The translations under genes were made by a program, and so were the position numbers. Of a stretch of 64,000 nucleotides of DNA, positions 20,506 through 39,110 are shown piece after piece (the first letter of the stretch is position 1; every line of letters starts with the position of its first letter). The notes beneath the pieces are model-generated. The model made no database searches, was not told the origin of the DNA, and saw nothing but the letters and a program-made list of their open reading frames with translations. The stretch is from Anaerolineales bacterium. Its GTDB lineage: Bacteria > Chloroflexota > Anaerolineae > Anaerolineales > Villigracilaceae. The stretch lies in contig JADGQB010000001.1 in assembly GCA_017882145.1 (NCBI GenBank), positions 144 to 64,143 on the forward strand. The letters are read 5' to 3'.

Positions 20506-21972
20506 CTATACTACTTCCGCCGGCTTGGATGGTTTGTGCCTTTTAAGGTTGGGTTGATTTTCGTTATTTTGGGTTACAGGCGAGGAATAAGGGCGGATGT
20601 GAATATTATCAGCGCCCAAGGCTCGCTTGAGCTCATCCAATGCAGTTTGGAGCATTACTTCCGGGTCGGTGGTACTACGGATGCGGGTGGTTATTTCAGA
20701 AACTGTGCGCTCACGATTTGCACGGCCCGTAGTCTCTTCGAATAGGCGTGCATTTTCCAGCGCCAATCCCACACGGTCTGCAATTGCCTGGATGATGCTG
20801 ATCTCTTCTACCTGCCACACACGATCTGGATCCGTTGAACGGATATCCAGTATACCGATGATCTGTTCGTGTACCCGTAAAGGAATCGCCACTGCTGCTT
20901 CACGGTTGGAGTTTTTATCTGAAGCGAGAATAACAGTTTCCCCATTTTTAATTGCTTGTTGGGCTTCTTCCCACTCGATTGGATCAGTGAGTCTTTTATC
21001 ACCAGTTATCGTGTGGAGATAGCCAAGCTGCTGCTCCCTGGATACCTTTTCCCAGGCTTGAGAACTAAATCGCCTGGAAAATGCCTGGGCTTCAGCCAAA
21101 GCGCGTTGCGTTTCACTATACAGCTGTGAATTTTCGATGGCAATGGCGATCTGATCTGCAAGGATCGCGAGCGTATTCGACCTTTCTTTTGAAAAGGCAT
21201 CTGGGTCCTTGCTCTGCGCGTCGATAACGCCGATTATTTGATTCCGTACCCGCAACGGCAAGGCAATTTCCGAGCGCGTTTCAGGCAAATTTGGGTTATT
21301 AAAATACACTGCGTCTTCACCAACCTCTGAAGCTATGCGCGCTATCCCTGTGGCCGCAACATTTCCCACAATCCCAACCTGCCCGACCTCCAACCGATGG
21401 GCGCGTTCCAGCATGCGTTGACCTTCGACGCTGTTCGAGGCCTTCAAAACGGCAAATTTCCTGGCCTCGTCCAGAAGGAAAATGCCCACGTGGTAGAAGC
21501 CAAACCTTTCGCTCAAAAGCCGGGTTATCAAGGGAAGTAATTTTTCAATATCCTGTTCCATGGACATTACCCGGGCTACTTCTGAAATAAGTTGAAGCTC
21601 TTCAGCAGCAAACTTTAATTTGAGGGCGTCCAAACGGCGTCCTTCAATCTCGGCTTTCAAATCCTGATTGAGCCCTTGAAGTTCGGAGATTCTTTCTGTT
21701 ACTGTCTGCTCAAGGTGCGTTTTAATCTGAATCAAACTATCTTCGCGCTTGCCAGCTACGCTTAAGGTCAGTCCCAAGAATATTGGGGCGGAATCAATTA
21801 TCCATAAAAGTTTTTGGCTTTGCTGCGCCTCTACAAAAGCCGCCCATCCAATCGGTAGATGGTTTATCCAGGCATAAAGAAGCATTCCCAGGATTGGAAA
21901 GAGACATCCAGATAGAATCCCAAATATAGTATAACGAAATGTCGAAGTTTTAAGAATGGACGTGCGTTTCAT
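20506..21972 (-). CDS. Membrane GAF-GAF signalling protein, paralog 7 (2 TM, coiled coil, GAF, short GAF-like module, truncated GAF start)
   Basis: 488 aa with RFGFYHVGIFLLDE (codons at 21490-21507), NPNLPETRSEIALPL and ADQIAIAIENSQLY. Second module ends AVAIPLRVHEQIIGILDI...LALENARLFEE. Tail is RERTVSEITTRIRSTTDPEVMLQTALDELKRALGADNIHIRP. I recognised no kinase, cyclase, MCP or DNA-binding output. Confidence 0.85.
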   Translation of the reverse strand: MKRTSILKTSTFRYTIFGILSGCLFPILGMLLYAWINHLPIGWAAFVEAQQSQKLLWIIDSAPIFLGLTLSVAGKREDSLIQIKTHLEQTVTERISELQGLNQDLKAEIEGRRLDALKLKFAAEELQLISEVARVMSMEQDIEKLLPLITRLLSERFGFYHVGIFLLDEARKFAVLKASNSVEGQRMLERAHRLEVGQVGIVGNVAATGIARIASEVGEDAVYFNNPNLPETRSEIALPLRVRNQIIGVIDAQSKDPDAFSKERSNTLAILADQIAIAIENSQLYSETQRALAEAQAFSRRFSSQAWEKVSREQQLGYLHTITGDKRLTDPIEWEEAQQAIKNGETVILASDKNSNREAAVAIPLRVHEQIIGILDIRSTDPDRVWQVEEISIIQAIADRVGLALENARLFEETTGRANRERTVSEITTRIRSTTDPEVMLQTALDELKRALGADNIHIRPYSSPVTQNNENQPNLKRHKPSKPAEVV

Positions 21973-22055
21973 GCTGACTCCTGTAAATTCGCAGCGTGAT
22001 TAGAAACTCGAAAGGATCCATAAGGAAGCTACGTAGATTGCATTTGATTATCCGG

Positions 22056-24896
22056 TTACTCGTCTGTACTCTTAAGTTGAACCAAAATATTGGTACCGGT
22101 AAATACCTTACTTAGCTCTTCAGCAGTCGTCCTCAAAATGCTTTCCATACGCAGCGACCCGCCTATTCGGCCGGAAATTTCCGAAATCGTCGCGTCCCGC
22201 TGTGCTCGCAGGCTGATGTCTTGATATAGACGGGCGCTCTCAAGGGCAGCCCCCAATTGGATGGAGAGCTCATCCGCCATCCCGATGGTCTCGGGTGTCC
22301 ATTGGCCACTGCCTTCAGGTTTTTCCATGCGGATGGCACCAATGCTTTGACCGCGGATCTTGACTGGCAGGTGCAAAACTGTGCCATCTTCTTCAAGTAC
22401 GTTTTCGCCGGTTTGAATGGCCTGCAGGAAAGCAGGGCTCGCATTTTCCGACACAGGCGATGTTTGACCTTCGGAAAGGCTGGCGTAACCGACTGTCTTC
22501 AATCTCTCGCGTAACAAACGCTGCCAGCCTTCGGCACTTAGATTTCCATAGGCACGCTGAGCCGTTTCCAGGGCTTTCTGGTTCTCAGAGAACAAGCGTG
22601 CATTCTCGATTGCAATGGCGATCTGATCGGCGAGTACTTTTAATGTTGTGACATCTTCCTGGGAGAAAGCAGATTCTTGAGAGCTCTGGATATCGAGGGC
22701 GCCCAGGATCCTGCCTCCAACGATGAGTGGAAGGGCCATTTCGGATTGAGTAGTAGGCAGATCCGGGTTATTAAAGTATTGAATATCTTCACCAACATTC
22801 AAGGCAATACGGGCTTCTCCAGCGCCGGTCACATACCCTACAATACCGACATGCCCAACTTTCAATTTATGGCCGCGAGTGAGCATGCGCTGTCCGCCTT
22901 CACTGTTGGAGGCGCGCAGGACGGCGTATTCACCGCGCTCGTCCAAAAGGAAAATGCCCACATGGTAGAAACCAAAGCGCTGGCTGATCAAGCGGGTTAC
23001 CTGGCGCAAAAGTTCGTCCAGGTCGCGCAAGCGGGCGGCTGTGCCACCAACGTCGGCAGCAGCCTGGAGTTGGATCGCGCGTCGTTCCAGTGCCTGGGTA
23101 CGTTCGGCCACACGTTGTTCAAGGTTTCCAATCAGGTCGCGAACGCGTCCAGTCATTGAATTAAAGGTTTTTGCCAACTCGCCGATTTCATCCTGGGTAT
23201 GGATAGTCGCATTTGCGTTGATATCACCTTGAGCTATTTGCTCAGAGGTACGCGTCAGACTCAGGATGGGAGCGATCAGGACCTGGGTTAAGCCCAGGGC
23301 GATACCAATACTAATCAGACTGATCAAAATGCTGATAAGCACCACATTTTGGGTTTGTTTTTGTACCGGAGCAAGCAGAGTTGTTTGAGGTACATAAGTG
23401 ACAACATGCCAATTTGTACTGGGCAGAATTGCTGCTCCGGCCTGGTCCACATTCGAACTGGCAACTGCAGCTTGTTGTTGTGGATGAAAATTGCCCGTGA
23501 AGTATTGGGTTGTAGCCAGATCTTTCAATCCGGAAGTCAGCCCATCCATGTGAACAGTTAATTGTTCGGGCGGCAGATTTTGCAAGCGGTTATCATAGAT
23601 CAAACTGTAGATCGTATTGTTGTTGGGCGGATTGACAATTCTATAAACCAATTCCGGAGCAGAACTATGCGCAATAATGATGTTGTTATCATCCAACAAC
23701 ATCGCAGACACATCAGGGCCGAGCTTGGCGCTATTTCGGACGATGGATTGCTGGAAGATTGATGCGGAATACGAGATATCCAGTATGCCAATAGTGATTC
23801 CAGCTGCAGACCGAATTGGTGCGCTGAATTGAATGATACCGCCTCCATTACTAGTAATACTAATCGGCGAAGCGAAGGGATATCCGCTCTGGAAGGGGGT
23901 TAGAAAGTGATTTAAAGAAGATTCAAATTTCGCAATCTCAGCCGGGTTGGTACTAAGCTGTACCATGCCAAACCGGTCAAGCAATTTACACGAAATGATG
24001 TTGATAGGATCTCTCTTTAATAGGGCGAGCAGGGTAGCGGCTCCCACGCGTTGCAAGTCGGTGTCGCGCGGTAATAACAATCCTTGATTGGCCGCGCTTG
24101 AAGCCGGCTGGCCCAGATAGCTAATAAAGGCTGGATCCAAGGCAGCCGTCCGTGTTATGTCAAGGTTGGTCTGAATGAAAGAATTGATGGATAACGCCAG
24201 TTGATCGGATGAAAGCACCAGACTTTGGTCAGCTTGATTGATCAGGTTCGATTGAATGTTGCGGCTTGTAATGGAAGTGATGATCGAAGTAGGGACAACT
24301 GTCAAGAGTCCCAATACCAGGATCATCTTAACCCGAAAGGCATAATTATTGAGATTAAATGCGACGTAAATGCCGAACAGAATCGCGATTATTACTGACG
24401 CCCATTGAGCAATCATGGCGGTCTGTGCACTTGCCCCCGTGAGGGAGCCGGCTGTTTTTAGTGTTCCAAAAAATTGTATGGCAGACCTGCCAAGAATTGA
24501 CAGTATAACGGTCCAGGTAAACTCCCTTTCGGAGAAGGACTGAATCGCTATCATGATCGGTATGACCACAATCACCAATTCAGCAACTGAAGAGTAAGTC
24601 GATTGGGCCGAGACGATTGCAATAACCAGGAAACCAATAAATACAGCCGCAATCATTAGATAGCTTGCCAGACGAATCCTACCTTTCCAGGCAAAAGCTA
24701 ATGCAATACAACCCAGGATGCTTAGGATAATTGGGATGGGGTTAACGATAAATTCCCGGATATCTTTTGGCGCCAACAAATCCCCGATTGAGGCCAGACT
24801 GAAAACCACAAATGCCAAGGTGGTAAACCCCAGAGTGATGAGCAACCTTCGTGTTCTTGGAGGAAAAGTAACAAACCAGTTTCTTAGCTTCTGCAT
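22056..24896 (-). CDS. Membrane GAF-GAF signalling protein, paralog 6 (multi-TM, large extracytoplasmic Cache-like region, HAMP, GAF, GAF-like module, truncated GAF start)
   Basis: 946 aa. HAMP is LIAPILSLTRTSEQIAQGDINA...DEIGELAKTFNSMTGRV. GAF has RFGFYHVGIFLLDE and NPDLPTTQSEMALPL. Tail is RDATISEISGRIGGSLRMESILRTTAEELSKVF. Confidence 0.85.
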   Translation of the reverse strand: MQKLRNWFVTFPPRTRRLLITLGFTTLAFVVFSLASIGDLLAPKDIREFIVNPIPIILSILGCIALAFAWKGRIRLASYLMIAAVFIGFLVIAIVSAQSTYSSVAELVIVVIPIMIAIQSFSEREFTWTVILSILGRSAIQFFGTLKTAGSLTGASAQTAMIAQWASVIIAILFGIYVAFNLNNYAFRVKMILVLGLLTVVPTSIITSITSRNIQSNLINQADQSLVLSSDQLALSINSFIQTNLDITRTAALDPAFISYLGQPASSAANQGLLLPRDTDLQRVGAATLLALLKRDPINIISCKLLDRFGMVQLSTNPAEIAKFESSLNHFLTPFQSGYPFASPISITSNGGGIIQFSAPIRSAAGITIGILDISYSASIFQQSIVRNSAKLGPDVSAMLLDDNNIIIAHSSAPELVYRIVNPPNNNTIYSLIYDNRLQNLPPEQLTVHMDGLTSGLKDLATTQYFTGNFHPQQQAAVASSNVDQAGAAILPSTNWHVVTYVPQTTLLAPVQKQTQNVVLISILISLISIGIALGLTQVLIAPILSLTRTSEQIAQGDINANATIHTQDEIGELAKTFNSMTGRVRDLIGNLEQRVAERTQALERRAIQLQAAADVGGTAARLRDLDELLRQVTRLISQRFGFYHVGIFLLDERGEYAVLRASNSEGGQRMLTRGHKLKVGHVGIVGYVTGAGEARIALNVGEDIQYFNNPDLPTTQSEMALPLIVGGRILGALDIQSSQESAFSQEDVTTLKVLADQIAIAIENARLFSENQKALETAQRAYGNLSAEGWQRLLRERLKTVGYASLSEGQTSPVSENASPAFLQAIQTGENVLEEDGTVLHLPVKIRGQSIGAIRMEKPEGSGQWTPETIGMADELSIQLGAALESARLYQDISLRAQRDATISEISGRIGGSLRMESILRTTAEELSKVFTGTNILVQLKSTDE

Positions 24897-24942
24897 TTTA
24901 TATCCTGTCTACCCGGGAATCTTTCAGGAGATGACATTCTTC

Positions 24943-25917: not shown

Positions 25918-27613
25918 TAATGACCTCTATGGATTTATTTTCGCCGGATAATTGCAATCTGACTTCCGCTTCGCTTAATTCAAGCGACTGACGCATTTCC
26001 TTTACTGCTGTTTTCAAGATTGTTTCTATATCCAGTGTTTCACGCATCCTGGTTGTAATTTGACCGACCACCCGTTCCCTCTCAGCCCGTTGTTGCGCCT
26101 CTTCAACCAGGCGGGTATTCTCTAGTGCGAGGCTGACACGAGCTGCTACTGTTTCGAGCAGGGCTTTTTCATCCTCCTGCCATTTATGTGCTACATCATC
26201 ACTGTCGTAACCAATAACGCCAATGATAGCCTCGCGCAGGATAATTGGAGCTGCCAGCCGCGCACGCGCAGGTGTCCCGGTGCTGATAAAAGTTACAGAC
26301 TTCCCGTTCCGGAGCTGAACAGCGACTTCCGGGGGAAAGGTTTCATCAGCCGGGTGCACCTGGAGCCGATCGTAGGTGTATCCTATATTTTTACCTGCCC
26401 CCAGTCTTTCCCAGGCACGCTCGACATTCTTGCCAGCCAATAAACTAACCTCTTGCATACGATTTTGCAGCTCGTTAACTAAGCGAATATTTGCGATGGA
26501 AAGAGCAATTTGATCTGCGAGCATCTGCATGGTTTGTTGATCAATATGTTGTGGATCAGCAGATTCGGATTGGATATTCATCAAACCATACAAACGGCCA
26601 CTGATTGACATGGGAAAGACCAGACTCGTTTGCATGTCTGGCAGTTTTTTAGGGAGATCAATATAGTAGTTCAAATTCGCAATTTTTATTTGCAGTGCGC
26701 CGGAACCCATCGGGAGGCTGTTGGATTCGCTTCGGATAACAGTCAATTTATATCCAGCAGCAACCGAAGGTTTTCCTGCCTGGCTGAGGGATTTCTGCAG
26801 AATTGCATATTCTTCTGTCTGATCAATAATAAAAAGACCCGCGTGATCCAGATGGATCTGGTTAATTAGTAATTGCGCAGTCTGTTCAAGTAACTCTTCT
26901 TCATTATTTACCCGGCTGGTAATCTGCGATACAGAAGCAACGGTTTGCAGAGTGACGTTGCGCTGTTCCATGGCGGCGGTACGTAGTTGCAGGTCATTCT
27001 GGCTGCTTTCCAACTGAGCGTTGATCTCTTTCTCCGCCTTTTCTTCTTCGAGCGCCTTATGTGCCACAGTTGCGATGCTGTGGATCGCCAGGTTTAATAG
27101 TAAAGCGACTGCAATCAGAGCGATACTATGCGAGAGTAGTACTGAGTAGATAGGCACATTGGCATATTGGGGAAGTAATCCTTGATTCTCGGCATAGGCC
27201 AGACCTGCCCCGCCAAGGAGAGCGAGTGCTGCAAAAATGATGCTGCCTCGCATTCCCATGGTCAATCCGGCGATGAGTATGATTGCAGCAAAAGCGCCAA
27301 AACCTGTATCCCGAATACCACCATAAATAGCCACTTCCACTGAAATGGCGATCCACAGCATGGAGGTCAAAATTGCACTGGCTAATAGCGTTCGTTTCGA
27401 ATTGATCAATACCAACAGGCCGAATTCAACAAGAACGGCAACAATGGCGATTATCAACTGACCTGGAGGTGGAAAGAATATTGCATAAATCAGGAACAGG
27501 AATGTTAGCGCAAGGGTGGCCAGCAAAATAATATAAATACTGCGTGCCTGGGCTGCCTTTTCCGGATCATCCATTACGGGGGGGCTAAATAATTTCCTGA
27601 ATCTTTGTAGCAT
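25910..27613 (-). CDS. Membrane GAF-GAF signalling protein, paralog 5 (about 6 TM, coiled coil, divergent GAF, GAF-like module, truncated GAF start)
   Basis: 567 aa with a hydrophobic N-terminal third. The divergent first GAF reads QIHLDHAGLFIIDQ...ADQIALSIANIRLV. The second module ends AAPIILREAIIGVIG...LALENTRLVEE. Tail is RERVVGQITTRMRETLDIETILKTAVKEMRQSL. Confidence 0.8.
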   Translation of the reverse strand: MLQRFRKLFSPPVMDDPEKAAQARSIYIILLATLALTFLFLIYAIFFPPPGQLIIAIVAVLVEFGLLVLINSKRTLLASAILTSMLWIAISVEVAIYGGIRDTGFGAFAAIILIAGLTMGMRGSIIFAALALLGGAGLAYAENQGLLPQYANVPIYSVLLSHSIALIAVALLLNLAIHSIATVAHKALEEEKAEKEINAQLESSQNDLQLRTAAMEQRNVTLQTVASVSQITSRVNNEEELLEQTAQLLINQIHLDHAGLFIIDQTEEYAILQKSLSQAGKPSVAAGYKLTVIRSESNSLPMGSGALQIKIANLNYYIDLPKKLPDMQTSLVFPMSISGRLYGLMNIQSESADPQHIDQQTMQMLADQIALSIANIRLVNELQNRMQEVSLLAGKNVERAWERLGAGKNIGYTYDRLQVHPADETFPPEVAVQLRNGKSVTFISTGTPARARLAAPIILREAIIGVIGYDSDDVAHKWQEDEKALLETVAARVSLALENTRLVEEAQQRAERERVVGQITTRMRETLDIETILKTAVKEMRQSLELSEAEVRLQLSGENKSIEVINE

Positions 27614-27640
27614 TGATTCGCCTATTCCTTGTCCGGTCTA

Positions 27641-29554
27641 TTATTCTTTCTGTGACCCTGAATTTACCAAACCGATTTGAATGAAAGTTTTCGGCATGCC
27701 CAAAGCGTTCCCTAATTCACGAACGGTATTTTGCAGGAGCGTATCGAGGTTTGTGGATTGTTGAGCCTGGGCTGAGATAAGGTTGATCTGGCGTTCACGA
27801 GTAGCCAGGCGTTGAGCGTCTTGAACGAGGCGGGCATTTTCCAATGCAAGTGCCAGACGGTTGGCGGCTTCTTCAACGAGTCTGGCTGTCTCTGGTGAAA
27901 TTTCAGCAGTTTGGAATCTCAAGTTCAAAATTCCAAGGGTTTGCCCGCGCAACCGGATCGGAACGGCCAGTATATTGCTGTTCTTGTCAGTCTCACTCTT
28001 TATAATGCTTGCTGTCACGGTACTTTGCATTTCGAAGATGTCATCCGATGATGGTTCCGGGAGAGATTCGATCGTTACACCATCATATTGATATCCCAGC
28101 AAACCGCGGTTTCGCTCCATGAAATTCCGCCAAGTTCGGGATGTTGTTCCCTTTAGCGCCTGATCCAGTGCCGCGGCATTGTCTTTCAACCCCTGCAGGA
28201 GTTGGGTCTTTTCGATACTGATACTGATTTGATCCGCTACAACTTGCAGGATGGAAACACTGTTGTGCTCAAAGGCGTTAACCTTGTCACTTTGGATATC
28301 CAAAATACCAATGATTCGATTGGTACCCTTGAGGGGTATGGCAACTTCTGAGCGAGTGTAAGGTAAAAGCGGATTCTTTATATAAGTAGATTCGGAGGCA
28401 ATGTCGAGAATTACCCGGGTGGCACCTGCCTGAGCTACTTCACCAATAACACCTCGTTCCTTGATGCCCACCTTGTATTTCCGTTTCATCATTAAACGAC
28501 CAGCTTCTCCGCCAGCGCCTTTCAAAATGGCATTTTCGCCGTTATCGTCAATCAAATATATTCCCGTATGGTAATACCCAAATTTTTCCATAATTAGTAG
28601 TGCTGCCCGGTCCACCATACTTTCAATGTCGGGTGCTGCGGCTGTATCGCGGGCGATCAGAGAAGCAGCTTGAATTTCTGCGGTTCGGCGTTCCAAACTC
28701 GAAGTTCGTTCGGCGATGCGCTCTTCCATGTTTGTGATCAGGGACAGAAGTTGATCCGCCATGGAGAAGAAGGTATCCCGTAAGATGTGAACTTCGGAAA
28801 AATTCGTTTTAATCTCCGGCCGGTAACTGAACTCGCCATCCGAGAAGTGTTTGGCGGCGGTAGTTATGGAGGCGATTGGTTTTGACAGTTGGTTCCCTAA
28901 CAACCAGCCGACAAGTCCGACAACAGGGAGCAGAAGAATAAAGATAAGCAGAAATTGCTGCAGCACCTGACGCTCATGCGTCAATACTGTCGCGGCGGAG
29001 ATATCTGCGGCGATAATGCCTGCAAATTTGCCTTGGCTGGTATAGAATGGTGCATAAGCAGAAAGGAATGTTCCATATTCGTCTGTGTAGAAGGTTGTCT
29101 CTGCAAGAGTCTTGTTGATCGTCTTATAATTGGCTGCCAGGACAGGACCAGGGCTTGAATATCGGTCGCCGAAAGCCGAAGCTCCGGCTTCTCCAGGATT
29201 TGTTGCATCCACTACAAAATAGAGGCCTTCATTGTCATAACGCATTGTATAAACAAACCTTAAGTCTGCATCTGAAGAACGAATTCTAAGGTTTTGTAAC
29301 CTGATCGTTTGATAAGCTGGATCTTGGTCGGAGTGAACGCTAATAAAAGCATCCCCGTTTTGTTGAAGAGCGGCCACCGAAACGATATCCTCCAGCCGCT
29401 GTTGCAGTTGTGCACGAAATTGGGACCGGAAGTTGAAATAAGCAATGGCAAGGCCAATTATAAGAACAAGAGCAGTAAGGCCAATGAAGCTCAAGGAAAG
29501 CCTATTTGCGAGGTTAATCCCATGATCCTGCAATTTCTTAGTTTCGCGTTTCAC
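27641..29554 (-). CDS. Membrane GAF-GAF signalling protein, paralog 4 (TM, Cache-like, TM, HAMP, GAF, GAF-like module, truncated GAF start)
   Basis: 637 aa. GTG start at 29554 preceded by AAAGGAG. HAMP is LSKPIASITTAAKHFSDGEF.... GAF has KFGYYHTGIYLIDD and NPLLPYTRSEVAIPL. Tail is RERQINLISAQAQQSTNLDTLLQNTVRELGNAL. Confidence 0.85.
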   Translation of the reverse strand: MKRETKKLQDHGINLANRLSLSFIGLTALVLIIGLAIAYFNFRSQFRAQLQQRLEDIVSVAALQQNGDAFISVHSDQDPAYQTIRLQNLRIRSSDADLRFVYTMRYDNEGLYFVVDATNPGEAGASAFGDRYSSPGPVLAANYKTINKTLAETTFYTDEYGTFLSAYAPFYTSQGKFAGIIAADISAATVLTHERQVLQQFLLIFILLLPVVGLVGWLLGNQLSKPIASITTAAKHFSDGEFSYRPEIKTNFSEVHILRDTFFSMADQLLSLITNMEERIAERTSSLERRTAEIQAASLIARDTAAAPDIESMVDRAALLIMEKFGYYHTGIYLIDDNGENAILKGAGGEAGRLMMKRKYKVGIKERGVIGEVAQAGATRVILDIASESTYIKNPLLPYTRSEVAIPLKGTNRIIGILDIQSDKVNAFEHNSVSILQVVADQISISIEKTQLLQGLKDNAAALDQALKGTTSRTWRNFMERNRGLLGYQYDGVTIESLPEPSSDDIFEMQSTVTASIIKSETDKNSNILAVPIRLRGQTLGILNLRFQTAEISPETARLVEEAANRLALALENARLVQDAQRLATRERQINLISAQAQQSTNLDTLLQNTVRELGNALGMPKTFIQIGLVNSGSQKE

Positions 29555-29671
29555 TTCCGAGCTCCTTTATTATTACAACGATCAGTGATCAGCGATTGTT
29601 GCAATATTTCACGAAATTTGGTCATTTTATTGATTGCCACTTCGATCTCGAGTTGGTTTACTTTCGAACAC

Positions 29672-32149
29672 TTAGGAAGACTTCGAACTCACGTCTTTCG
29701 AAGCTTGCGGGGAAGAGATATAAGCAGATACTTCTGCGACATTAGGCAACTGGTGTAATTCTCGAATAGCGGTTTGTAGAATGGTTTCCGGATCAAGCGA
29801 GCTGCCCAGATTCGCCGTCAGCTTACTCAAGGATTGTTCCTGAGCTGCGCGCCGTTGGGCTTCATCAAGCAGACGGGCATTTTCAAGCGCCAAGCCGACC
29901 TGGCTGGCAATTTCCAGGGCCAGGGCACGGTCTGTTTCATTCCAGGTTTTTTCTGTCTTGCGCTGTAAAACAATCGTTCCAAGAGTCTGGCCGCGCAGTG
30001 TAATGGGAATATTCAGCCGATCTGAGGATGTATCACCATTGGTCGGCATATTCCCTGGCTGAGTTGCGGAGGTAAATCCCATGGAAGTGTACCTGTAGGA
30101 GTGCTTGTTTAGGCGAACGCGCTCCCTCCATACCTGGCGGATATTTTCTGACGTACTCATTTCAAGCCGCTGGATCGCGTCCTGACTTTCTGTTAGCAAG
30201 CGAGCATTTTGAATTGCCAACCCGATTTGATCTGCCATCGTCTGCAACACATCGATATCATCCTGATGGAACGCCGATGGCTGTGTTGATTGGATATCCA
30301 GAATACCGAGAACATTTCCGCGCGCCTTCAAAGGAATGGCTGCCTCAGAACGGGTTAACGGCAAGTCGGGGTTATGATAATAATTTGGATCGTTTTCAAC
30401 ATCCATGACCACTTGAGAACGATTCTGGTAGGCTGATGTGCCGACGATACCTTGTAAACCAACTACAAGTCTGTGTCCACGGGCCAGCATCTTTTGTCCG
30501 CCTTCGGAAGAGGCTGCCTGTAGTACAGCATGTTCTCCGGAATCATCCAAAAGGAAAATGCCGACATGATAAAAGTCGAAACGATTCGTGATCAAATCAA
30601 CAGTACGGGTTAACAGCGTCTTAAGATCCTGGGTTTCTGCAGCATCATGCGCAACCAGGGCGGCAGACTGAAGGGAGAGAGTCTTTCGAAGCAGATCGTT
30701 GGTGCGATCCTCCACTTGTTGCTCAAGTGATTGGATCATGCTCCTCATGGATGCCGTCATTGTGTTGATTGCTTTTGCAAGTTTTCCCACCTCATCCCGG
30801 CCACGAATTCCGGCTTCAGCGGAAAGATCCCCTTCTGTAATTGCTTCAGCCGTTTTGGTAAGGGCTATCAGGGGGGATGTGAGACTGTTACCAATCAGGA
30901 GGGTGGCGATTAATGCCACTACCAGGATTGCAACCACCAATAACAGGCTGCGCGTCAGCGTGCTGGTTGTCTGCAGGGCAATCTGTTGTTTGGCAGCGAT
31001 CGCATTCGCTAAAAGCTCATTCGAAGGAGCAATAATTACAAGCCCGTACCCTATGGCCGGGATGGGATCATACGAAACAAAACGTTCGACGCCTCCAAAA
31101 GATAAGGTGTCGATGCCACTTTTTCCGGAAGCGGTTTTATCAAATACACTGAACAAGCTTGCCGGGATACCTGAGGGTTTCGTGGGGTCCAAAACTTCGC
31201 CGAGTGGCACTGTTTCAGGAGTAAGGCCCAGATCCTTATAACCGGCGGCAGGCATTGCGATCAATCGCTTATTTTTATCAATCAAAATGGCATAACCGGT
31301 CTTTCCAACCTGGATGTTGGATACCAGCTCGGTAATTCTATTAAGCTGGATGTCCATAGCGGTTACGCCACGGAAGTTGCCTCCCGAATCAAACACTGGC
31401 GCACTGGTAGTTACGATCAGTCCATGAAGCGCTGCATCAAGGTAAGGATCAGACCACACCGATTTTCTTTGTGGGTTTTGCGCCGGCGAGGCCTTCAAAA
31501 ACCAGGGCCGGCTGGTTACATCGAAATCAGGAGGAACGATTGCCGCCAGATCGATATTGGGATAATAGATGGTCTCACCCGACGTGCCGCCGAAGTAAAT
31601 GGCGACCGTATCCGGATTCTGTTTAAGAATAATTGGTACTGTCAGATCCAGTTGCTTGATCGTATCCAGCTCAACAGCCAGGTCAGGTTTAAGTTCTACT
31701 TTGGCAGGAACAAAGACCGAACTAATTTCAGAATTTAAATTATCCCAGGATCCATTCGGCAGGCGTTCCAGTGCCATGAATGCATTCCAATATGAGACGT
31801 TATTCAGAGTCGATTCATCCGTAAGCAGATTCGATGCCGTTGTACCGATTGTGGTGATGTCCCGGCTCATTAAAACGAAGAAGTTATTCAATTCCATTGC
31901 GCGGGCGGTACTAATATTGGTCAATCCATCTTGAGCTTGTTGAAGTACATTTTTTTCCAGCTGGCCCGTAAGGTATGTGTTTGCCTGGTTTGTGCGTGAG
32001 TACACATAATAGCCCGTTCCCACGATCGCCAAAGCGAGTACAAGCATATTGCCGAGGATTAGTTTGGCGCGTAAGCTAAGCGATCCCAAAAACGCAGGTC
32101 TTTTAGCGACAGATTTGGTAGGCAGCGGATTATTATTCATATTACCCAT
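29672..32149 (-). CDS. Membrane GAF-GAF signalling protein, paralog 3 (TM, double-Cache-like, TM, HAMP, GAF, GAF-like module, truncated GAF start)
   Basis: 825 aa with a ~350 aa extracytoplasmic region that has Cache-like features (RPWFLKA..., DPYLDA..., VTTSAPVF). HAMP is LTSPLIALTKTAEAITEGDL...DEVGKLAKAINTM. GAF has RFDFYHVGIFLLDD and NPDLPLTRSEAAIPL. Tail is QEQSLSKLTANLGSSLDPETILQTAIRELHQL. Confidence 0.85.
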   Translation of the reverse strand: MGNMNNNPLPTKSVAKRPAFLGSLSLRAKLILGNMLVLALAIVGTGYYVYSRTNQANTYLTGQLEKNVLQQAQDGLTNISTARAMELNNFFVLMSRDITTIGTTASNLLTDESTLNNVSYWNAFMALERLPNGSWDNLNSEISSVFVPAKVELKPDLAVELDTIKQLDLTVPIILKQNPDTVAIYFGGTSGETIYYPNIDLAAIVPPDFDVTSRPWFLKASPAQNPQRKSVWSDPYLDAALHGLIVTTSAPVFDSGGNFRGVTAMDIQLNRITELVSNIQVGKTGYAILIDKNKRLIAMPAAGYKDLGLTPETVPLGEVLDPTKPSGIPASLFSVFDKTASGKSGIDTLSFGGVERFVSYDPIPAIGYGLVIIAPSNELLANAIAAKQQIALQTTSTLTRSLLLVVAILVVALIATLLIGNSLTSPLIALTKTAEAITEGDLSAEAGIRGRDEVGKLAKAINTMTASMRSMIQSLEQQVEDRTNDLLRKTLSLQSAALVAHDAAETQDLKTLLTRTVDLITNRFDFYHVGIFLLDDSGEHAVLQAASSEGGQKMLARGHRLVVGLQGIVGTSAYQNRSQVVMDVENDPNYYHNPDLPLTRSEAAIPLKARGNVLGILDIQSTQPSAFHQDDIDVLQTMADQIGLAIQNARLLTESQDAIQRLEMSTSENIRQVWRERVRLNKHSYRYTSMGFTSATQPGNMPTNGDTSSDRLNIPITLRGQTLGTIVLQRKTEKTWNETDRALALEIASQVGLALENARLLDEAQRRAAQEQSLSKLTANLGSSLDPETILQTAIRELHQLPNVAEVSAYISSPQASKDVSSKSS

Positions 32150-32152
32150 TTA

Positions 32153-34084
32153 TCAGTCTGGTTTCAGCTCGACCGTAGCTTCATCGGCATGAAGTGCACG
32201 GCCGAGTTCCTTAATGGCAGTTTGAAGAATTAGATCTGTGTTGGGAGAGGACCATACTTTTCCGATGATCTCGGCTGCCACGCGTTCCCGCAGGGCTGTT
32301 TGGCGGCTTTCCTCGAGCAGGCGGGCATTTTCCATAGCCAGAGCTGCCTGGGTAGCCACAGCTTCCACCAGACTGTGCTCTTCAGGTGTCCAGTCCTGTT
32401 GACCCTCGAGATGCAATTGTCCAATGATTTGTTCACGAAGGGTCAAAGGAACATCGATCATGGATAGCTCTTCACTCGAGATAATCGTTTCCGGCGATGT
32501 GTAATCATATCCTTCGCTTTCCCGCGTAGTTTCGAACCATGTTCTGGCTACATATTCCTTCTGGACAATGCGCAAATCCTCGAGGCTTTTTTGTGTTTCG
32601 CGGAATAAGCGGGCATTATCCAGGGCTGTAGCAACGCTATTTGCCATACCTTGAAGAGTATCAATATCTTGTTCGGTAAATGCGGCTTCCTGAATGGATT
32701 GCACATCCAGAACGCCGATGATCCGTCCGGTAATTGTCAAGGGCAGGGCGATCTCTGAGCGTGTATCCGGAAGAAGTGGGTTTTCAAAACGGACCGGCTC
32801 CGCACCAACATCCAGGGCGATGCGGGCTTGGCGTGTGGCGATGGCTGTGCCGACCATGCTTTTTCCGCCCAACGGGAGCCGGTGGCCGCGTGATTTCAAT
32901 GTCTGACCGGCAGACCCGGTCGCGTCCTTAAGAACTGCCCATTGTCCAGATTCATCTATCAGGAAAATAGCGGAATAGTAATAGCCAAAACGGTCGCTAA
33001 TCAGGTTCACTACTTTTGTGATGAGTTCGTCAGGATCGAGAATGGTACTTGCGACCCCGCTCACTTCAATTGTGGCTTTTAGCTGATCGGTCCGTTTTGC
33101 TACTTCGCTTTCCAGGGTTCCCTGTAAATTGTCCAGTCTGGTGATCATCCGGTTAAAGTGCACGGCCAACTCGCCGACTTCGTCGGTCGCGTTGACCGTA
33201 GTGCGCTGCTTTAGATCCCCGTTTTCGACCTTGTCCAACACCGCGATGATTTGGTGAATTGGATCGGACACACCACGTGAAAGCAGGAGCGAGAGCAGGA
33301 ATCCAAGCACCAAAGCTACGACTGCAGCAACCAGAATTTGGTATTGAAGACTTCGCAAAGCGCCTTGCGTTCCAATCAAGCCGTTGACCAATACAGTAAT
33401 GGTACTGTGATAGCCAACAGGTGCCACCAGGAGAACGCTTACGAGAATCAAGATAAAAATAACCACCAACAATTTAGTCAGGATTCTCGCCCCTTTGGAA
33501 CCAGACAGCTGTCTCTCAAATTCCTGAGGGATGAGGAGTGCCCTGGCAGGGGCTAACAAGCGATCGATCAATAATACGCCCAGAGCGATAATGACGGAAA
33601 CAGAGACAATTGCTCCCATTAAAACGTACAGGAGTTGATTTGTGGAAGCTTTCAGGCTGAGACTCATAAACCCAAGCAAAGGCAGGATTTCTACAACAAT
33701 TGCCACCACCATTGAGGCGATGCCATATCTCCACCCACAAGCAGTGACCTGTTTCCAAGCCTGAAGTTCTTTTTCTTCTTCCAGATCAGATGGTTGAAGG
33801 CCTTCCAACAGCTTTACCAGCCGGATACGCACCTGCCGGTAGGTAAAATGGATCCAAAGAAGAAGGATAATATTTCCGAGTACAATCATGCCGGCAGTGA
33901 AAAAACCAGCCTGCCTGAATTGTTGTCCGGTAAATTCGGCATTCGATTGTACAAAAAATGCAACCGGAATGACTAATAGATTTGGAATCAGTTGGGCGAA
34001 GAGAACAACCAAAACCAGGAAGAATCCTTTGGTTTTGAGCAGGATTCGTCCCAGGAGGGTAGCGGACAGATTGGTTTTGTCCAT
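32153..34084 (-). CDS. Membrane GAF-GAF signalling protein, paralog 2 (multi-TM, HAMP, GAF, GAF-like module, truncated GAF start)
   Basis: 643 aa. HAMP is VSDPIHQIIAVLDKVENGDL...DEVGELAVHFNRM. GAF has RFGYYYSAIFLIDE and NPLLPDTRSEIALPL. Tail is RERVAAEIIGKVWSSPNTDLILQTAIKELGRAL. There is only a 3 nt gap to the next gene. Confidence 0.85.
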   Translation of the reverse strand: MDKTNLSATLLGRILLKTKGFFLVLVVLFAQLIPNLLVIPVAFFVQSNAEFTGQQFRQAGFFTAGMIVLGNIILLLWIHFTYRQVRIRLVKLLEGLQPSDLEEEKELQAWKQVTACGWRYGIASMVVAIVVEILPLLGFMSLSLKASTNQLLYVLMGAIVSVSVIIALGVLLIDRLLAPARALLIPQEFERQLSGSKGARILTKLLVVIFILILVSVLLVAPVGYHSTITVLVNGLIGTQGALRSLQYQILVAAVVALVLGFLLSLLLSRGVSDPIHQIIAVLDKVENGDLKQRTTVNATDEVGELAVHFNRMITRLDNLQGTLESEVAKRTDQLKATIEVSGVASTILDPDELITKVVNLISDRFGYYYSAIFLIDESGQWAVLKDATGSAGQTLKSRGHRLPLGGKSMVGTAIATRQARIALDVGAEPVRFENPLLPDTRSEIALPLTITGRIIGVLDVQSIQEAAFTEQDIDTLQGMANSVATALDNARLFRETQKSLEDLRIVQKEYVARTWFETTRESEGYDYTSPETIISSEELSMIDVPLTLREQIIGQLHLEGQQDWTPEEHSLVEAVATQAALAMENARLLEESRQTALRERVAAEIIGKVWSSPNTDLILQTAIKELGRALHADEATVELKPD

Positions 34085-34104
34085 AAGGTATTTCCTCTCA
34101 GCCT

Positions 34105-37100
34105 CTACTCTGAACTCGAACGAGACTCAGTTGTGGATTCTTCAATTTCGAGAGTGATTTGTGCACGTCGTGCACCGAGAACTTTGCTTAATTCGCTGGT
34201 GGTGGTGGCCATGATCGTTTGCATATCCGTGGAACGGCGGATCTTACTGGTCACTTCATAGAGCATTCGTTCGTGATCCACCTGACGACGAACCTGCTCG
34301 ATCAGGCGGGCATTGGAAATAATGGCTGCGAGACTGCCGCCCAAAGTACCCAGCAATTCCTCGTCATTTTCGTTATAGGCGCTCACCTGGTCGCTCTCAA
34401 CGTTCAAGACGCCCAGCAAGTCTCCACGATACGAAAGCGGAATTGCCAATTCAGAGCGTATATTGGATCCAACCTGGATGTAACGAGAATCCAGCGTGAC
34501 ATCATTAATCCGCTGAGGCAGTTGATGGACGGCAACCCATCCCGTGATACCTGCCCCGAAGGGGACTTCAAGTTTCCCAATTTCTTCGGAGTACCCTGCA
34601 AAGGAACTGACCTTCAGGGTCTTCTTCGCTTTATCAGCCAATAAAATCGAAACACGATCCCCACCCAAAGTCACCTGCAAGCCTTGCGTGGCACTATTCA
34701 AGGATTCCTCAAGCGTAGTTCCGGATGCGGCAGCGGTGGTAACATGGTGCAGTAGGCGGTGTTGGGAAAGGTGCTCTTGTGTATCCGCGAACAACTCTGA
34801 GTTGATCACTGCAATCGCCATTTGGTCTGCCAGGATGCGCAATATACGGATATCTTCTTCCGCGAAGGAATAAGCCCGGGTACTCTGAACATCCAGGGCT
34901 CCGAGGATACGCTGTCCCACTTTTAGGGGAATAGCAGCCTCAGCATGGGTTTCAGGCAAAAGCGGGTTGGCATAATAAGTTGCATCCCGGCTTGTATCGT
35001 TGACGATGAGCGCTTCACCGCTGCCGGTGACGTAGCCTACGATGGATTTGGATCCAACCTTTAATTTATGACCTGCACGTTTCATCTGCTTGCCGGCCTC
35101 GCCAGTGGCCTCACGAATGGTTGCGTACTCGTTAGTCTGGTCGAGCATAAACACGGCCGCGTGATAGAAATTGAACCGCTCGTAAATCAGTTTAACTGCT
35201 TTATTGAGCAGCTCACCCAGGTCGAGCGAACCTGATATATCCCGGGCGACTTCTGCTGCAGTCTGAAGTTGAATAGCGCGGGCACTCATTTGATCCAGAA
35301 GGCGTCCATTGTAGATCGCGGCCGCGACCTGGATCGCGAAGCTGGTCAGTAGTTGCAAGTCGCTTTCATCGAAGGCGTGTTCATTTTCCACATCTTGGAC
35401 AATCAGAGCTCCGATTGCCTCATCAGCAACGATCAAAGGCGTGCCGAGCCAGGATTTGGCCGGCTTACCCGCAATTTTAGCCCCGAGGGCAGCTGCCCGA
35501 TTCTCTGTATCTTCAACCAACAATAAAGGCTGCTTGGTACGTATTAAGATGGAAGTCAATCCCTCTCCAAGGGGGAATGTGTCTATGCTTGTAACATCGC
35601 CACCTTCAAATCCCTTTTCATACATATACGGGATGGATATCGAGCTGGTATTGGCGGTGTAGATTGCCACCAGGAAATTTACGTCTCCCATTAACAAGCG
35701 GATACGGGAATGCAAAGTGGTATAGATAGTATTTAAATCTCGAATGGAAGATATTTCTTTACCAATAGAAATGATGGTCTCCATCTCTGCAAGACGGCGC
35801 TCCACCTTTTGTAAAGTATTCAGACGTTCAATGGATGAAGTTAGCAGATCGGCGACATGCGTATATGCTTGAACCATCTCCGGTAGAATAGGTTGTTCTC
35901 TACGCGACCCGACGATCAATAATGTTGTGATTTCCTCTTTGCGCATTACTGGAACAAAGGCTACGGATTGGAATAGCGCCTGTTCGATGATCTTAAGTAG
36001 TGCGGATTGCAGCAAGGGCAGTTTACCGGTTTCTCCCCCAATAAATTTGTTCAACTCTGGATGAAATTGGGCATAGTGGAGGGAAGAGAGTTTGCTTACT
36101 TCGGCGACCAACGTTTTATTTGCAAGTTGCTCGGATACTTCTTTGGGCGAAAGATCCAGCCACTCCGGTAAACCAAGGATTCCACCACTTTGGTCTGGAT
36201 CCACGCTGGTAACAACCCGGAAATTATTCTTCTCAGACAACATAAAGATCGCACCAGAGTTCGTCTGTTGGAACACACTCTGGGTGACATTAAATACTTC
36301 TCCAATATTCGATGAGTTCGAGATATCTCCGGCAAGTTCGGCAACTGTTTGCAATTGGGTATTAATTGTGCCCATTTCTGTAATCCGATGCTCGGTCGCT
36401 TGATTATCACGAATGCGGTCAAGTGAGACAGCAACTTGCTTGGCTAAATTGCTATAAGGCTGCATGCTGGTAGTATTTAATGGTTCCCTGGTCTGGGTGC
36501 CGATTAAAAAGACCGCAGCAAGCGACTCGGTGCATTTTACGGGGATGACTGCCACGCTGAAAATCTGGATCTGTTGAAGGGAACGGACCAGGTTGTAGGG
36601 CAAGGAACTTAACCGATTGCCTTCGCCGATAAACAGGTTAGATCCCAGGTATGGTCCAATCTCATCGATGGAAATTGCGATCGATTCGGGCAATTTTTGG
36701 CCGCCCGACAGTTCCAGATCCGTTTTTGCCGCAGCTTTAAGCTCATTCCCCTCAGGGATCAGGTACAAGGCGACGTACGGAATTCTGGGAAAGAGTTCCT
36801 GCATTATTTGGCAGATATCAATTTCGGTTTTCGCCTGGGCAACTTTAAATCCAGCCTGGTATACCTCCGCAACTTCTTGAATGCTACCTTTTTCGGCTTC
36901 GAATTGGTACACATTCTGGATGGAGGTTGCAATTTGGCTGGCCAGCATTTGAAGTACGACAATGATTTCATTGTCAAAGGCAGTCGTCCGGGTGCTTTGT
37001 AAATCCAATACACCCAGTAAACTATCTCCTCCCAGGATGGGTATTGCCAACTCAGACTGATTTCCAGGCAGAAGTTCCGCCTCCAATTGGAGCGGATCCC

Positions 37101-38016
37101 CGGTCAACCTTGTTATCAGACGTTGTAGTTTGTTTTCGGCGACCCATCCAAGCATGGAGGGGGGACCATAGGGGATGCGCTTTCCTTCCCCGACCAATCG
37201 ATCCGCATCTGGACCCTGAGCGGTCTTCAGAAATAGTTCGCGCCTGGTTTCATTTGCAAGGTAAAAACCAGTAAAAGAAAATCCCATACGTGCGTTGATC
37301 AGATTTACGCCCTGATTTAATAATGTGTCGATGGATGAAGTTGAAATCAGGTCTTGAGCGATTTCGGCGGCGATCCTGGAGAAGCGTGTACGCTCTTCGA
37401 TACGCTCTTCCAAGCGGTTTTGCAAGATGCCGATTTCATCCTGCTGCTGGGTTTCAGATTTTTCCCGGAACCACGCGATAAGAATAAAAATCCCTACAAT
37501 GATCCCCAGCCCAATAAAAATATTCAGTTCTGTGCTGGCTGTAATATTGGCCATCAAGGGCAGAACGCCTATGGTAATCATCACAACGATTGAAATAATG
37601 ACGATCGCCAATAACGGCAAGAGAACAATGCTTAGCGTAAGGGCAGGGACAACTGTGGCCATCAAAATAATAATCACAGATGTGTTTACCGAATAAACCG
37701 AACCCACTATAAAGCCAGATAATATAATGCCGCAAACCAGTAAAATACTTCCCACTATAAAATTTTCAGAGCGCGCCAGCGCCAAAGCGGCTGACATCAT
37801 GATGGCTAATACGAACAGACCAATGGTGAGACTGGTTGGGAAACCAATGATCAAACCGACTATCCCGGCAATGAAACAGCCGGCAGCCAATATCAAGGAA
37901 ACGAGATTCGTCAGGTGCGCCTGTTGTCTTGAGCTGGAATCTTTGATGTTAGGGTGTGTCTCAAGGATTCTTCCTATCAATCCTTTGATAGTAAGCTTCT
38001 GTTTAGCTGGCAACAT
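34105..38016 (-). CDS. Giant membrane multi-GAF signalling protein, paralog 1 (about 6 TM, coiled coil, about six GAF modules, truncated GAF start)
   Basis: 1303 aa with a hydrophobic N-terminal ~190 aa. GAF-terminal helices recur: ASQIATSIQNVYQF, LAKQVAVSLDRIRD, VADLLTSSIERLNT, FAIQVAAAIYNGRLL, ADQMAIAVINSELF, LGGSLAAIISNARLIEQ. The fifth GAF is the cluster subtype (RFNFYHAAVFMLDQ, NPLLPETHAEAAIPL). Tail is HERMLYEVTSKIRRSTDMQTIMATTTSELSKVL. ATG 38016 is preceded by AAGGAG. Confidence 0.85.
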   Translation of the reverse strand: MLPAKQKLTIKGLIGRILETHPNIKDSSSRQQAHLTNLVSLILAAGCFIAGIVGLIIGFPTSLTIGLFVLAIMMSAALALARSENFIVGSILLVCGIILSGFIVGSVYSVNTSVIIILMATVVPALTLSIVLLPLLAIVIISIVVMITIGVLPLMANITASTELNIFIGLGIIVGIFILIAWFREKSETQQQDEIGILQNRLEERIEERTRFSRIAAEIAQDLISTSSIDTLLNQGVNLINARMGFSFTGFYLANETRRELFLKTAQGPDADRLVGEGKRIPYGPPSMLGWVAENKLQRLITRLTGDPLQLEAELLPGNQSELAIPILGGDSLLGVLDLQSTRTTAFDNEIIVVLQMLASQIATSIQNVYQFEAEKGSIQEVAEVYQAGFKVAQAKTEIDICQIMQELFPRIPYVALYLIPEGNELKAAAKTDLELSGGQKLPESIAISIDEIGPYLGSNLFIGEGNRLSSLPYNLVRSLQQIQIFSVAVIPVKCTESLAAVFLIGTQTREPLNTTSMQPYSNLAKQVAVSLDRIRDNQATEHRITEMGTINTQLQTVAELAGDISNSSNIGEVFNVTQSVFQQTNSGAIFMLSEKNNFRVVTSVDPDQSGGILGLPEWLDLSPKEVSEQLANKTLVAEVSKLSSLHYAQFHPELNKFIGGETGKLPLLQSALLKIIEQALFQSVAFVPVMRKEEITTLLIVGSRREQPILPEMVQAYTHVADLLTSSIERLNTLQKVERRLAEMETIISIGKEISSIRDLNTIYTTLHSRIRLLMGDVNFLVAIYTANTSSISIPYMYEKGFEGGDVTSIDTFPLGEGLTSILIRTKQPLLLVEDTENRAAALGAKIAGKPAKSWLGTPLIVADEAIGALIVQDVENEHAFDESDLQLLTSFAIQVAAAIYNGRLLDQMSARAIQLQTAAEVARDISGSLDLGELLNKAVKLIYERFNFYHAAVFMLDQTNEYATIREATGEAGKQMKRAGHKLKVGSKSIVGYVTGSGEALIVNDTSRDATYYANPLLPETHAEAAIPLKVGQRILGALDVQSTRAYSFAEEDIRILRILADQMAIAVINSELFADTQEHLSQHRLLHHVTTAAASGTTLEESLNSATQGLQVTLGGDRVSILLADKAKKTLKVSSFAGYSEEIGKLEVPFGAGITGWVAVHQLPQRINDVTLDSRYIQVGSNIRSELAIPLSYRGDLLGVLNVESDQVSAYNENDEELLGTLGGSLAAIISNARLIEQVRRQVDHERMLYEVTSKIRRSTDMQTIMATTTSELSKVLGARRAQITLEIEESTTESRSSSE

Positions 38017-38916: not shown

Positions 38917-39110
38917 ATTGGTTTTTCTGCCTCCGCAATAACATTTTAGCATGTCGTCGAAAGCGACGCATAACAGCATCCTTGCAATCTCGACCGGGTA
39001 AAATCTAAAAAAAAGCCTCCTGACTATCAGAACAATGGGTCTGATCGGAAGCGTTCAGGCCGCATTGACTCTTTCCCCGGCAATCTACAGGTGAAAGCGG
39101 CTAACCAGAA

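Follow-up and report, generated by a model that had tools for sequence, protein, structure and literature searches.

All seven transmembrane receptors encoded in one gene cluster of an Anaerolineales bacterium (Chloroflexota) end in the same short tail. Judged from its sequence, this tail keeps the start of a GAF domain of the phytochrome/cyanobacteriochrome type (linker helix, helix 1 and strand 1), while the body of that domain is absent. The cluster lies within the 64,000-nucleotide stretch of DNA analysed here (the window; GenBank assembly GCA_017882145.1, contig JADGQB010000001.1, positions 144 to 64,143), where it runs, tightly packed, on the minus strand (about 38979 down to 14087) and consists, in order, of two single REC genes, the receptors R7 to R1, a ParA/MinD-like ATPase, a hybrid histidine kinase, a fusion of a pyridoxal phosphate (PLP)-dependent enzyme with REC, and an EamA transporter. 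Pfam scans describe R1–R6 as transmembrane sensors with N-terminal hydrophobic segments, one full GAF and a second, partial GAF match, after which the protein ends; dCache is found in R2 and R5, HAMP is matched in R2, R4, R5 and R6, and R7 combines transmembrane (TM) segments with four GAF matches. The same scans detected no HisKA, HATPase, MCPsignal, GGDEF or other catalytic or DNA-binding output domain in R1–R7 (for MCPsignal, PF00015, none of the seven matches at E <= 0.1), and within the set HisKA and HATPase_c occur only in the kinase, a protein of 987 amino acids (aa). Tentatively, and at somewhat less than an even chance, we read the tail as part of a self-contained helical-hairpin cap that forms the receptors' common output end.

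An alignment of the last 260 aa, checked by translation, places the ends of all seven receptors 2–27 aa past a homologous tail of 42–45 aa, which itself follows an ENARL-type helix; this confirms the common terminal segment described in an earlier note on this DNA. A profile built from the seven tails scores each of them at 63–74 bits and finds nothing else significant in the receptors, although, since the tails are themselves in the profile, these scores measure mutual similarity and are no independent test. A hidden Markov model of the tail alone gave no significant match on GAF starts among the window's proteins, and the homology becomes visible only by profile–profile comparison. With hhalign, tail positions 3–41 align without gaps to positions 2–40 of the window's full GAFs (P 1e-5, probability 82%), and the tail also aligns to residues 153–190 of the kinase, represented by 58 orthologues (P 3.5e-6, 88%). 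The match extends upstream: the last 102 aa of the receptors (strand hairpin, helix 5, linker and tail) are collinear, with zero indels, with kinase residues 89–190 (E 8.9e-26, 99.7%). On these tail–kinase alignments the receptors end at the point where the kinase runs on into strand 2 of a full GAF. When PDB sequences were searched with a profile, helix 5, linker and tail fell on the N-termini or inter-GAF junctions of solved phytochrome and cyanobacteriochrome GAFs (8w26, 6oap, 6bhn, 8k9o, 6ozb, 6xhg and 3w2z), and the junction matched by the tail profile in 6oap reads QRIERERVVSQITQKIHQTLDLEEILQTTVTEVRQFLQADRVFVY. The identification of the tail as helix 1 plus strand 1 of a GAF, which the earlier note had proposed, is thus upheld by hhalign and the PDB-sequence search, and its similarity to the start of the kinase GAF proved significant by profile alignment. 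In native order the tail alone has no Pfam hit (PF01590, PF13185 or PF13492), and it spans just the first 40 or so positions of the GAF model. It lies outside all Pfam and NCBIfam models, the latter collection having no specific family, and searches of the full-text literature yielded no description of this receptor/tail architecture.

Each receptor carries two GAF subtypes. The upstream full GAF is of the FGFYHVGIFLLD/GAF_2 type, and the tail together with the short module that precedes it in R1–R6 is of a phytochrome/cyanobacteriochrome-like PF01590 type, with the signature R-x-W-x3-E, RER-x-V-x-x-IT-x-IR and TA-x-x-EL. The polar residues T24, A25, E28, S36 and Q41 of the tail had been taken for degeneration of a GAF core, large hydrophobic residues occupying these positions in 430 canonical GAF starts from the same loci. 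This interpretation was withdrawn because those local GAFs are of the other subtype (FGFYHVGIFLLD, GAF_2) and solved phytochrome/cyanobacteriochrome GAFs show the same T/T-A/E pattern.

The spread of the element was followed by a genome scan over one genome per species with a 10-sequence alignment as query, which returned at least 518 relatives. The best 80 of these together with one metagenome locus make up the locus set (81 related loci), to which the window was added for tail counts. Apart from two, whose labels read Lewinellaceae and just 'bacterium', these best 80 relatives are all metagenome-assembled genomes of Chloroflexota, mostly Anaerolineales. Searching the 81 loci and the window with a tail profile of 42 sequences gave 382 tails, and all 373 complete ones lie no more than 48 aa from the stop codon (46 within 5 aa, 321 at 6–30 aa, 6 at 31–60 aa and none further); close metagenome homologues, too, all terminate shortly past the tail. 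Among loci extending 10 kb in both directions, most hold 4–8 tail-bearing paralogues. The near-invariant positions among the 373 tails are [RK]1, E2, K/R11, I12, T24, A/T25, E28, L29, V/I38 and I/V40, with frequencies of 0.99 for E2, 0.97 for E28, 0.91 for K/R11, 0.90 for L29 and 0.86 for I12. Conservation peaks in helix 5 and the tail, the latter being, among R1 orthologues, the best-conserved part of the C-terminal region.

Such conservation bears on the possibility that the tail is a passive remnant, left over from a downstream GAF after gene fission or truncation, whose helix 1 stabilises the end of a coiled coil and binds no partner. The tail pattern is indeed that of ordinary GAF starts of its subtype, weak internal matches to the tail in giant relatives are likewise ordinary GAF starts, and the covariation within the tail described below fits a self-contained structural unit. 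A remnant would not, however, be expected to preserve strand 1, its exact length and residues that hardly vary in all 373 copies from seven paralogue lineages and about 80 genomes, nor to be the part that R1 orthologues conserve best towards their C-terminus, and the receptors would still need a route to an output. We regard a passive remnant as distinctly unlikely.

In R1–R6 the short GAF-like module ahead of the tail matches Pfam GAF positions ~56–133 only, and it opens with W-x3-R ... [GS]Y-x-Y. Six shortened GAFs with a W-x3-R...GY-x-Y start had been noted earlier; all six are short and carry the motif, but R5 reads SY. PF01590 scores are 32.5–43.8 bits in five of the six (cut-off 22.4) and 22.2 in R2, just under, all of the matches being partial. 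The R-x-W-x3-E ... A-x-L half of the module belongs to the same phytochrome/cyanobacteriochrome subtype as the tail. Across the locus set a full short module abuts 318 of 359 tails and a partial one 32 more, while in the R7 orthogroup (6 loci) the tail is placed after a complete GAF.

An AlphaFold2 model of R1 aa 283–468, predicted from 41 sequences, reached a mean predicted local distance difference test score (pLDDT) of 91 and a predicted template modelling score (pTM) of 0.71. The chain passes from an entering helix with the W motif through the GYLHT hairpin, a helix with a short strand and a long strand hairpin into a 45-residue helix, a 4-residue turn and a 16-residue helix (DSSP assignments E35-39, E42-46, H53-61, E65-67, E78-85, E88-96 and H106-). 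The 45-residue helix is uninterrupted; it begins as helix 5 and passes through the linker into the first part of the tail. Between helix 5 and the tail helix lie ~22 residues predicted to be helical, an arrangement also seen in tandem-GAF linkers. The segment GADNIHIRP is assigned as coil by DSSP, yet its pLDDT is 82–89. In this model the short module possesses five strands of its own in canonical GAF order and lacks only a separate helix 1. The top Foldseek matches in the PDB are GAF domains only (probability 1.0, E 9e-4 to 2e-2, ~90 columns, 2.4–3.5 A). The longest alignments, of 147–153 columns with TM 0.47–0.52, are to tandem-GAF structures (4bwi and 3lfv), which fits a tail placed where the next GAF would begin.

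Covariation was analysed by mean-field direct coupling analysis (mfDCA) of 417 non-redundant short-module-plus-tail units (effective number of sequences, Meff, 371), a sample whose paralogue subfamily structure can push up local couplings. Of the 100 strongest couplings, 13 join the tail helix to the tail strand against 0.9 expected, and 8 join the linker to the tail helix against 1.8 expected; the K11–E28 coupling ranks 26 of 13,704. The contacts between sheet and helix 5 expected of a GAF are recovered in the top 100, where helix 5–tail pairs are not enriched and not one coupling links the tail to a strand of the short module. This last absence is weak evidence because mfDCA misses strand–strand contacts (for strands 4–5, 1 was found with 1.0 expected).

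The same data address whether the GAF is circularly permuted or domain-swapped, with the tail, either of the same chain or of the dimer mate, folding back to give helix 1 and strand 1 to the short module. The two pieces co-occur (318 of 359 tails with a full module, 32 with a partial one), and three relatives contain strong internal tails (P0168, P0201 and, at aa 793–929, P0087), each followed by a GYxY-type short module. P0168, an R1-like protein of 795 aa, consists in part of three consecutive short-module-plus-tail units, and at aa 268–405 of P0201 the tail leads directly into a GYxY-type module without the W helix, which amounts to a small GAF in canonical order. In sequence, these arrangements make the receptor order a phase-shifted version of a canonical small GAF, which does not by itself show that the pieces reassemble in three dimensions. 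When the units are un-permuted, four of the six Pfam GAF matches become full-length (1–133; no shuffled-tail control), and a few couplings between helix 5 and tail rank high (127–157 at rank 9, 113–170 at rank 14). Against this, moving the tail before the short module gains only 1.4–6.6 bits in the Pfam GAF score, the module already has its five strands and the tail strand is unpaired in two AlphaFold2 runs. It also counts against reassembly that no tail-to-sheet coupling enters the top 100, that helix 5–tail pairs are not enriched, that a tandem-GAF-linker-like stretch of ~22 helical residues parts helix 5 from the tail helix, and that in the R7 orthogroup a complete GAF stands in front of the tail. 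The power of the AlphaFold2 and mfDCA tests is limited here. We hold permutation or swapping to be very unlikely; the cis circular permutation that the earlier note had listed is not supported and is the least supported of the readings considered.

A search of a representative library offers no census of the tail, as its profile still held the preceding GAF and its 134,521 hits are mostly generic giant multi-GAF proteins. Among the proteins P0054–P0203 are giants of 1,200–3,950 aa, with up to about 21 repeats of GAF plus short-module units. A terminal tail is present in 48 of the 150 multi-GAF proteins listed, and the weak internal matches of the tail profile in such proteins are GAF starts that run into full GAFs. 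In one related locus (L001; ENA contig_78370, 133106–145845) an orthologous receptor array is split into many short called genes, which looks like the result of frameshift errors in the assembly; such breaks account for the many database 'proteins' of 200–300 aa in the receptor family that are fragments.

The single kinase of the cluster is, on its Pfam reading, a soluble hybrid histidine kinase without a transmembrane or extracellular sensor part. In 58 orthologues its N-terminus divides into a conserved basic peptide at residues 2–20 (xKKKIxKRLDKLFxDI), an unconserved P/E/K-rich region from 21 to about 88, and then a conserved half-module and linker. The half-module, residues ~88–145, is homologous to receptor strand 4, strand 5 and helix 5 (hhalign) and is itself conserved, while the GAF that follows it varies between lineages. 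The earlier note had recognised the C-terminal half of a GAF at the kinase N-terminus and, behind it, a tail-homologous segment continuing into a complete GAF. Both observations stand, the second by hhalign, Pfam GAF_3 and AlphaFold2, and the nucleotide positions it had given for this part of the kinase are correct. The kinase start overlaps by 32 nt the end of the ParA-like gene, whose product matches PF13614 (1.1e-45) and PF01656 (1.6e-18), with no NCBIfam equivalog reaching cut-off. The ParA-like ATPase directly follows the R1 orthologue in 79 of the 81 loci, and a kinase with an N-terminus matching that of the window kinase is found after the R1 orthologue in all 81.

A receptor–kinase contact was modelled with AlphaFold2 as a pseudo-complex, in which R1 (280–488) and the kinase (1–312) were concatenated and the C-terminal extension of R1 together with the disordered region of the kinase served as tether (~90 residues). 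The alignment held six window concatenations and unpaired homologues and carried no inter-chain coevolution signal. No sign of tail–kinase docking was obtained (pLDDT 78, pTM 0.41, tail strand as coil) in this weak test, run with monomer weights on a shallow, unpaired alignment. The receptor part came out as in the first run, the tail strand being unpaired in both. Within the kinase part, residues 2–20 form a helix (pLDDT about 70), 21–67 are disordered, and the half-module (E68-72, E90-96, E102-108 and a helix from 118) has pLDDT 56–83 and is followed by a normal GAF.

The orphan half-module invites the reading, also raised in the earlier note, that the tail (helix 1 and strand 1) completes the half-GAF of the kinase (strands 4–5 and helix 5) in trans and thereby joins the spines of receptor and kinase. 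The kinase fragment is conserved yet has neither helix 1 nor strands 1–2, it is preceded by unconserved, predicted-disordered sequence, and its AlphaFold2 confidence is only 56–83. It is of the same GAF subtype as the tail, which is common to all of the receptors, themselves all without outputs, and the synteny holds in 79–81 of 81 loci. Its retention while the next GAF varies between lineages is moreover what would be expected for the partner of a conserved tail. However, what the fragment matches by homology is the stretch preceding the tail, not the absent body of the GAF to which the tail itself belongs, and in the concatenated run, weak test as it is, the tail strand is coil and pTM is 0.41. 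Docking by a split GAF therefore fits the synteny and the orphan kinase fragment and is unsupported by the pseudo-complex, and we consider it unlikely. Its fuller form, in which receptors and kinase would be the halves of a naturally split sensor kinase, reassembled by GAF fragment complementation, with many sensors time-sharing one kinase and the ParA-like ATPase organising them, we consider quite unlikely. In that scheme seven or more receptor paralogues could each supply helix 1 and strand 1, the kinase presenting its strands 4–5 and helix 5 from a flexible tether.

The tail could also dock elsewhere in the cluster, either on the ParA-like ATPase or on the short module of a neighbouring receptor dimer, giving positioned receptor arrays. 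In 79 of 81 loci a ParA/MinD-like ATPase gene comes right behind the last receptor; this and the 4–8 receptor paralogues per locus would suit such a role. The basic N-terminal peptide of the kinase, however, seems closer to a typical partner of ParA than the tail does. Docking on either of these sites is accordingly rated as highly improbable. The basic, amphipathic peptide at the N-terminus of the kinase does resemble a ParA-partner peptide; by that resemblance the kinase looks like a possible cargo of the ParA-like ATPase.

The reading we favour, that of a cap forming the common output end, starts from the homology, strictly terminal position, conservation, synteny and predicted secondary structure described above. 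From these we infer the fold of the cap in the dimer and the kinase, or the ParA-like ATPase, as its partner. The tail and the helix leaving the preceding module would fold into a small helical hairpin, with the short strand laid against it and the return helix held by the K11–E28 pair. Such a cap would close the end of the receptor's dimeric signalling helix, and a signal passing along this coiled-coil spine would reach the cap and be relayed through protein–protein contact to the cluster's one soluble hybrid histidine kinase, whose gene lies two genes downstream, and possibly also to the ParA-like ATPase. The contact might be made by complementation of the kinase half-GAF, by binding of the basic peptide or by pairing of homologous helices. 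The cap is placed at the output end because the receptors have no output of their own, all share the cap, and the cluster has one soluble kinase with a conserved, partly orphan N-terminus. Several points count against the proposal. The predicted cap fold is drawn from DSSP strings, pLDDT and covariation, the last of which can be inflated by paralogue subfamily structure. A lone strand with alternating hydrophobic residues usually pairs, and AlphaFold2 shows the tail strand unpaired; the concatenated receptor–kinase run, with its pTM of 0.41, gave no sign of contact. The conserved residues of the tail are typical of complete GAFs of the same subtype (6oap, 8w26), and their conservation alone is thus no proof of a new function, while the synteny with the kinase suggests a partnership and falls short of proving it.

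Table 1. Positions of the receptors, their tails and preceding modules, the kinase segments and neighbouring genes in the window.
Feature	Position	Strand	Residues or sequence	Description and basis
R1 open reading frame (ORF)	20506-21972	-		
R2 ORF	22056-24896	-		
R3 ORF	25910-27613	-		
R4 ORF	27641-29554	-		
R5 ORF	29672-32149	-		
R6 ORF	32153-34084	-		
R7 ORF	34105-38016	-		
R1 tail	20590..20715	-	aa 420-461, RERTVSEITTRIRSTTDPEVMLQTALDELKRALGADNIHIRP	followed by a 27 aa P/K-rich extension; profile, hhalign, AlphaFold2 helix-turn-helix-coil
R2 tail	22071..22199	-	aa 900-942	alignment, profile
R3 tail	25949..26080	-	aa 512-555	alignment, profile
R4 tail	27668..27799	-	aa 586-629	alignment, profile
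R5 tail	29714..29842	-	aa 770-812	alignment, profile
R6 tail	32162..32290	-	aa 599-641	protein ends 2 aa later; alignment, profile
R7 tail	34141..34275	-	aa 1248-1292	alignment, profile
R1 short module	20716..21063	-		W-x3-R helix, GYLHT hairpin, strand hairpin, helix 5 ending ENARLFEE; Pfam, AlphaFold2 (pLDDT 91, five strands), Foldseek
R2 short module	22200..22535	-		Pfam, alignment
R3 short module	26081..26422	-		Pfam, alignment
R4 short module	27800..28141	-		Pfam, alignment
R5 short module	29843..30139	-		SY, not GY; Pfam, alignment
R6 short module	32291..32548	-	86 aa	shortest; Pfam, alignment
R7 last GAF	34276..34770	-		complete, with its own helix 1 and strand 1, immediately before the tail; Pfam, alignment; same in orthologues from 5 other loci
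Soluble hybrid histidine kinase	16767..19730	-	987 aa	half-GAF, GAF, GAF, HisKA, HATPase_c, REC, REC; Pfam
Kinase basic N-terminal peptide	19671..19730	-	aa 1-20	58 orthologues; predicted helix (pLDDT about 70), flanked by disorder
Kinase orphan half-GAF	19296..19469	-	aa 88-145	strand hairpin, R/G-x-W, helix 5; conserved in 58 orthologues; AlphaFold2
Kinase tail-homologous segment, on into complete GAF	19158..19283	-	aa 150-191	hhalign; Pfam GAF_3 166-304; AlphaFold2 full GAF
ParA/MinD-like ATPase	19699..20484	-		between R1 and kinase; Pfam AAA_31/CbiA
PALP PLP-dependent enzyme–REC fusion	15063-16739	-		directly downstream of hybrid kinase
NMT1/THI5-type periplasmic binding protein	24943-25917	-		between R3 and R2
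Single-domain response regulator	38075-38545	-		cluster head
Single-domain response regulator	38542-38979	-		cluster head

Several neighbouring genes are shared to differing extents. A candidate for an enzymatic output of the phosphorelay is the PALP-type PLP-dependent enzyme–REC fusion downstream of the kinase; 67 of the 81 related loci contain a match to it. Between R3 and R2, overlapping the R3 stop codon by 8 nt, lies the gene of a periplasmic binding protein of the NMT1/THI5 type whose N-terminus is lipoprotein-like; it is present in only 23 of the 81 loci and may be a ligand-binding partner of a neighbouring receptor. The two single-domain response regulators at the cluster head overlap by 4 nt and are kept in 64 and 67 related loci.

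The components of this cluster (GAF, HAMP, dCache, HisKA kinase and ParA-like ATPases) are already known. No family model or paper was found that describes output-less receptors whose shared end is a GAF truncated, as a conserved state, after strand 1, paired with a kinase that opens with the homologous half-module. The cluster is widespread and conserved in Anaerolineales, bringing together 4–8 output-less transmembrane sensors with one terminal element, one soluble hybrid kinase starting with a matching orphan half-domain and a ParA-like gene between them. If the tail is a docking element, this would be a separate, CheA-independent wiring of many receptors to one kinase, and if the docking takes place by GAF fragment complementation, a natural split signalling domain, potentially useful for engineering modular sensors. 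Even on a conservative view, the tail profile marks a large unannotated receptor family, of which databases say only 'GAF domain-containing protein'.

At the level of sequence, the nearest likeness is to GAF junctions and N-termini of cyanobacterial phytochromes and cyanobacteriochromes. The stretch ...ERERVVSQITQKIHQTLDLEEILQTTVTEVRQFLQADRVFVY of 6oap, a dual sensor histidine kinase whose subtype is shared by the R-x-W-x3-E ... A-x-L half of the short module, is aligned through helix 5, linker and tail (profile domain E 1.9e-11), and in 8w26 (SyB-Cph1 GAF-PHY) the profile aligns residues 9–56 and 149–244. Foldseek, too, places the R1 model on 8w26 (95 columns, 30% identity). Those GAFs, however, run on to a complete domain that often binds a bilin, whereas the receptors described here stop after strand 1, have no chromophore-binding region and keep this truncation as a conserved state. 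The giant proteins and multi-GAF sensor kinases of Chloroflexota use the same blocks (GAF_2-type GAFs, short modules and ENARL linkers) in a continuous chain; here the chain is interrupted, the receptors ending after strand 1 and a separate soluble kinase opening with the homologous half-module. To our knowledge, signalling from output-less sensors to a kinase is established in only a few systems, foremost chemoreceptors with CheA and CheW. The system would resemble chemotaxis, in which a conserved hairpin tip connects the receptors to one CheA kinase, in its overall plan, with paralogous transmembrane sensors of variable input (dCache, HAMP) and one conserved distal element clustered with a single kinase. 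ParA-like ATPases position chemoreceptor clusters. Unlike in chemotaxis systems, however, none of the receptors here has an MCPsignal domain, and no CheA or CheW was seen among the cluster genes scanned; the kinase is instead a hybrid of the HisKA type, and what the receptors conserve is a GAF stub rather than the tip of a four-helix bundle.

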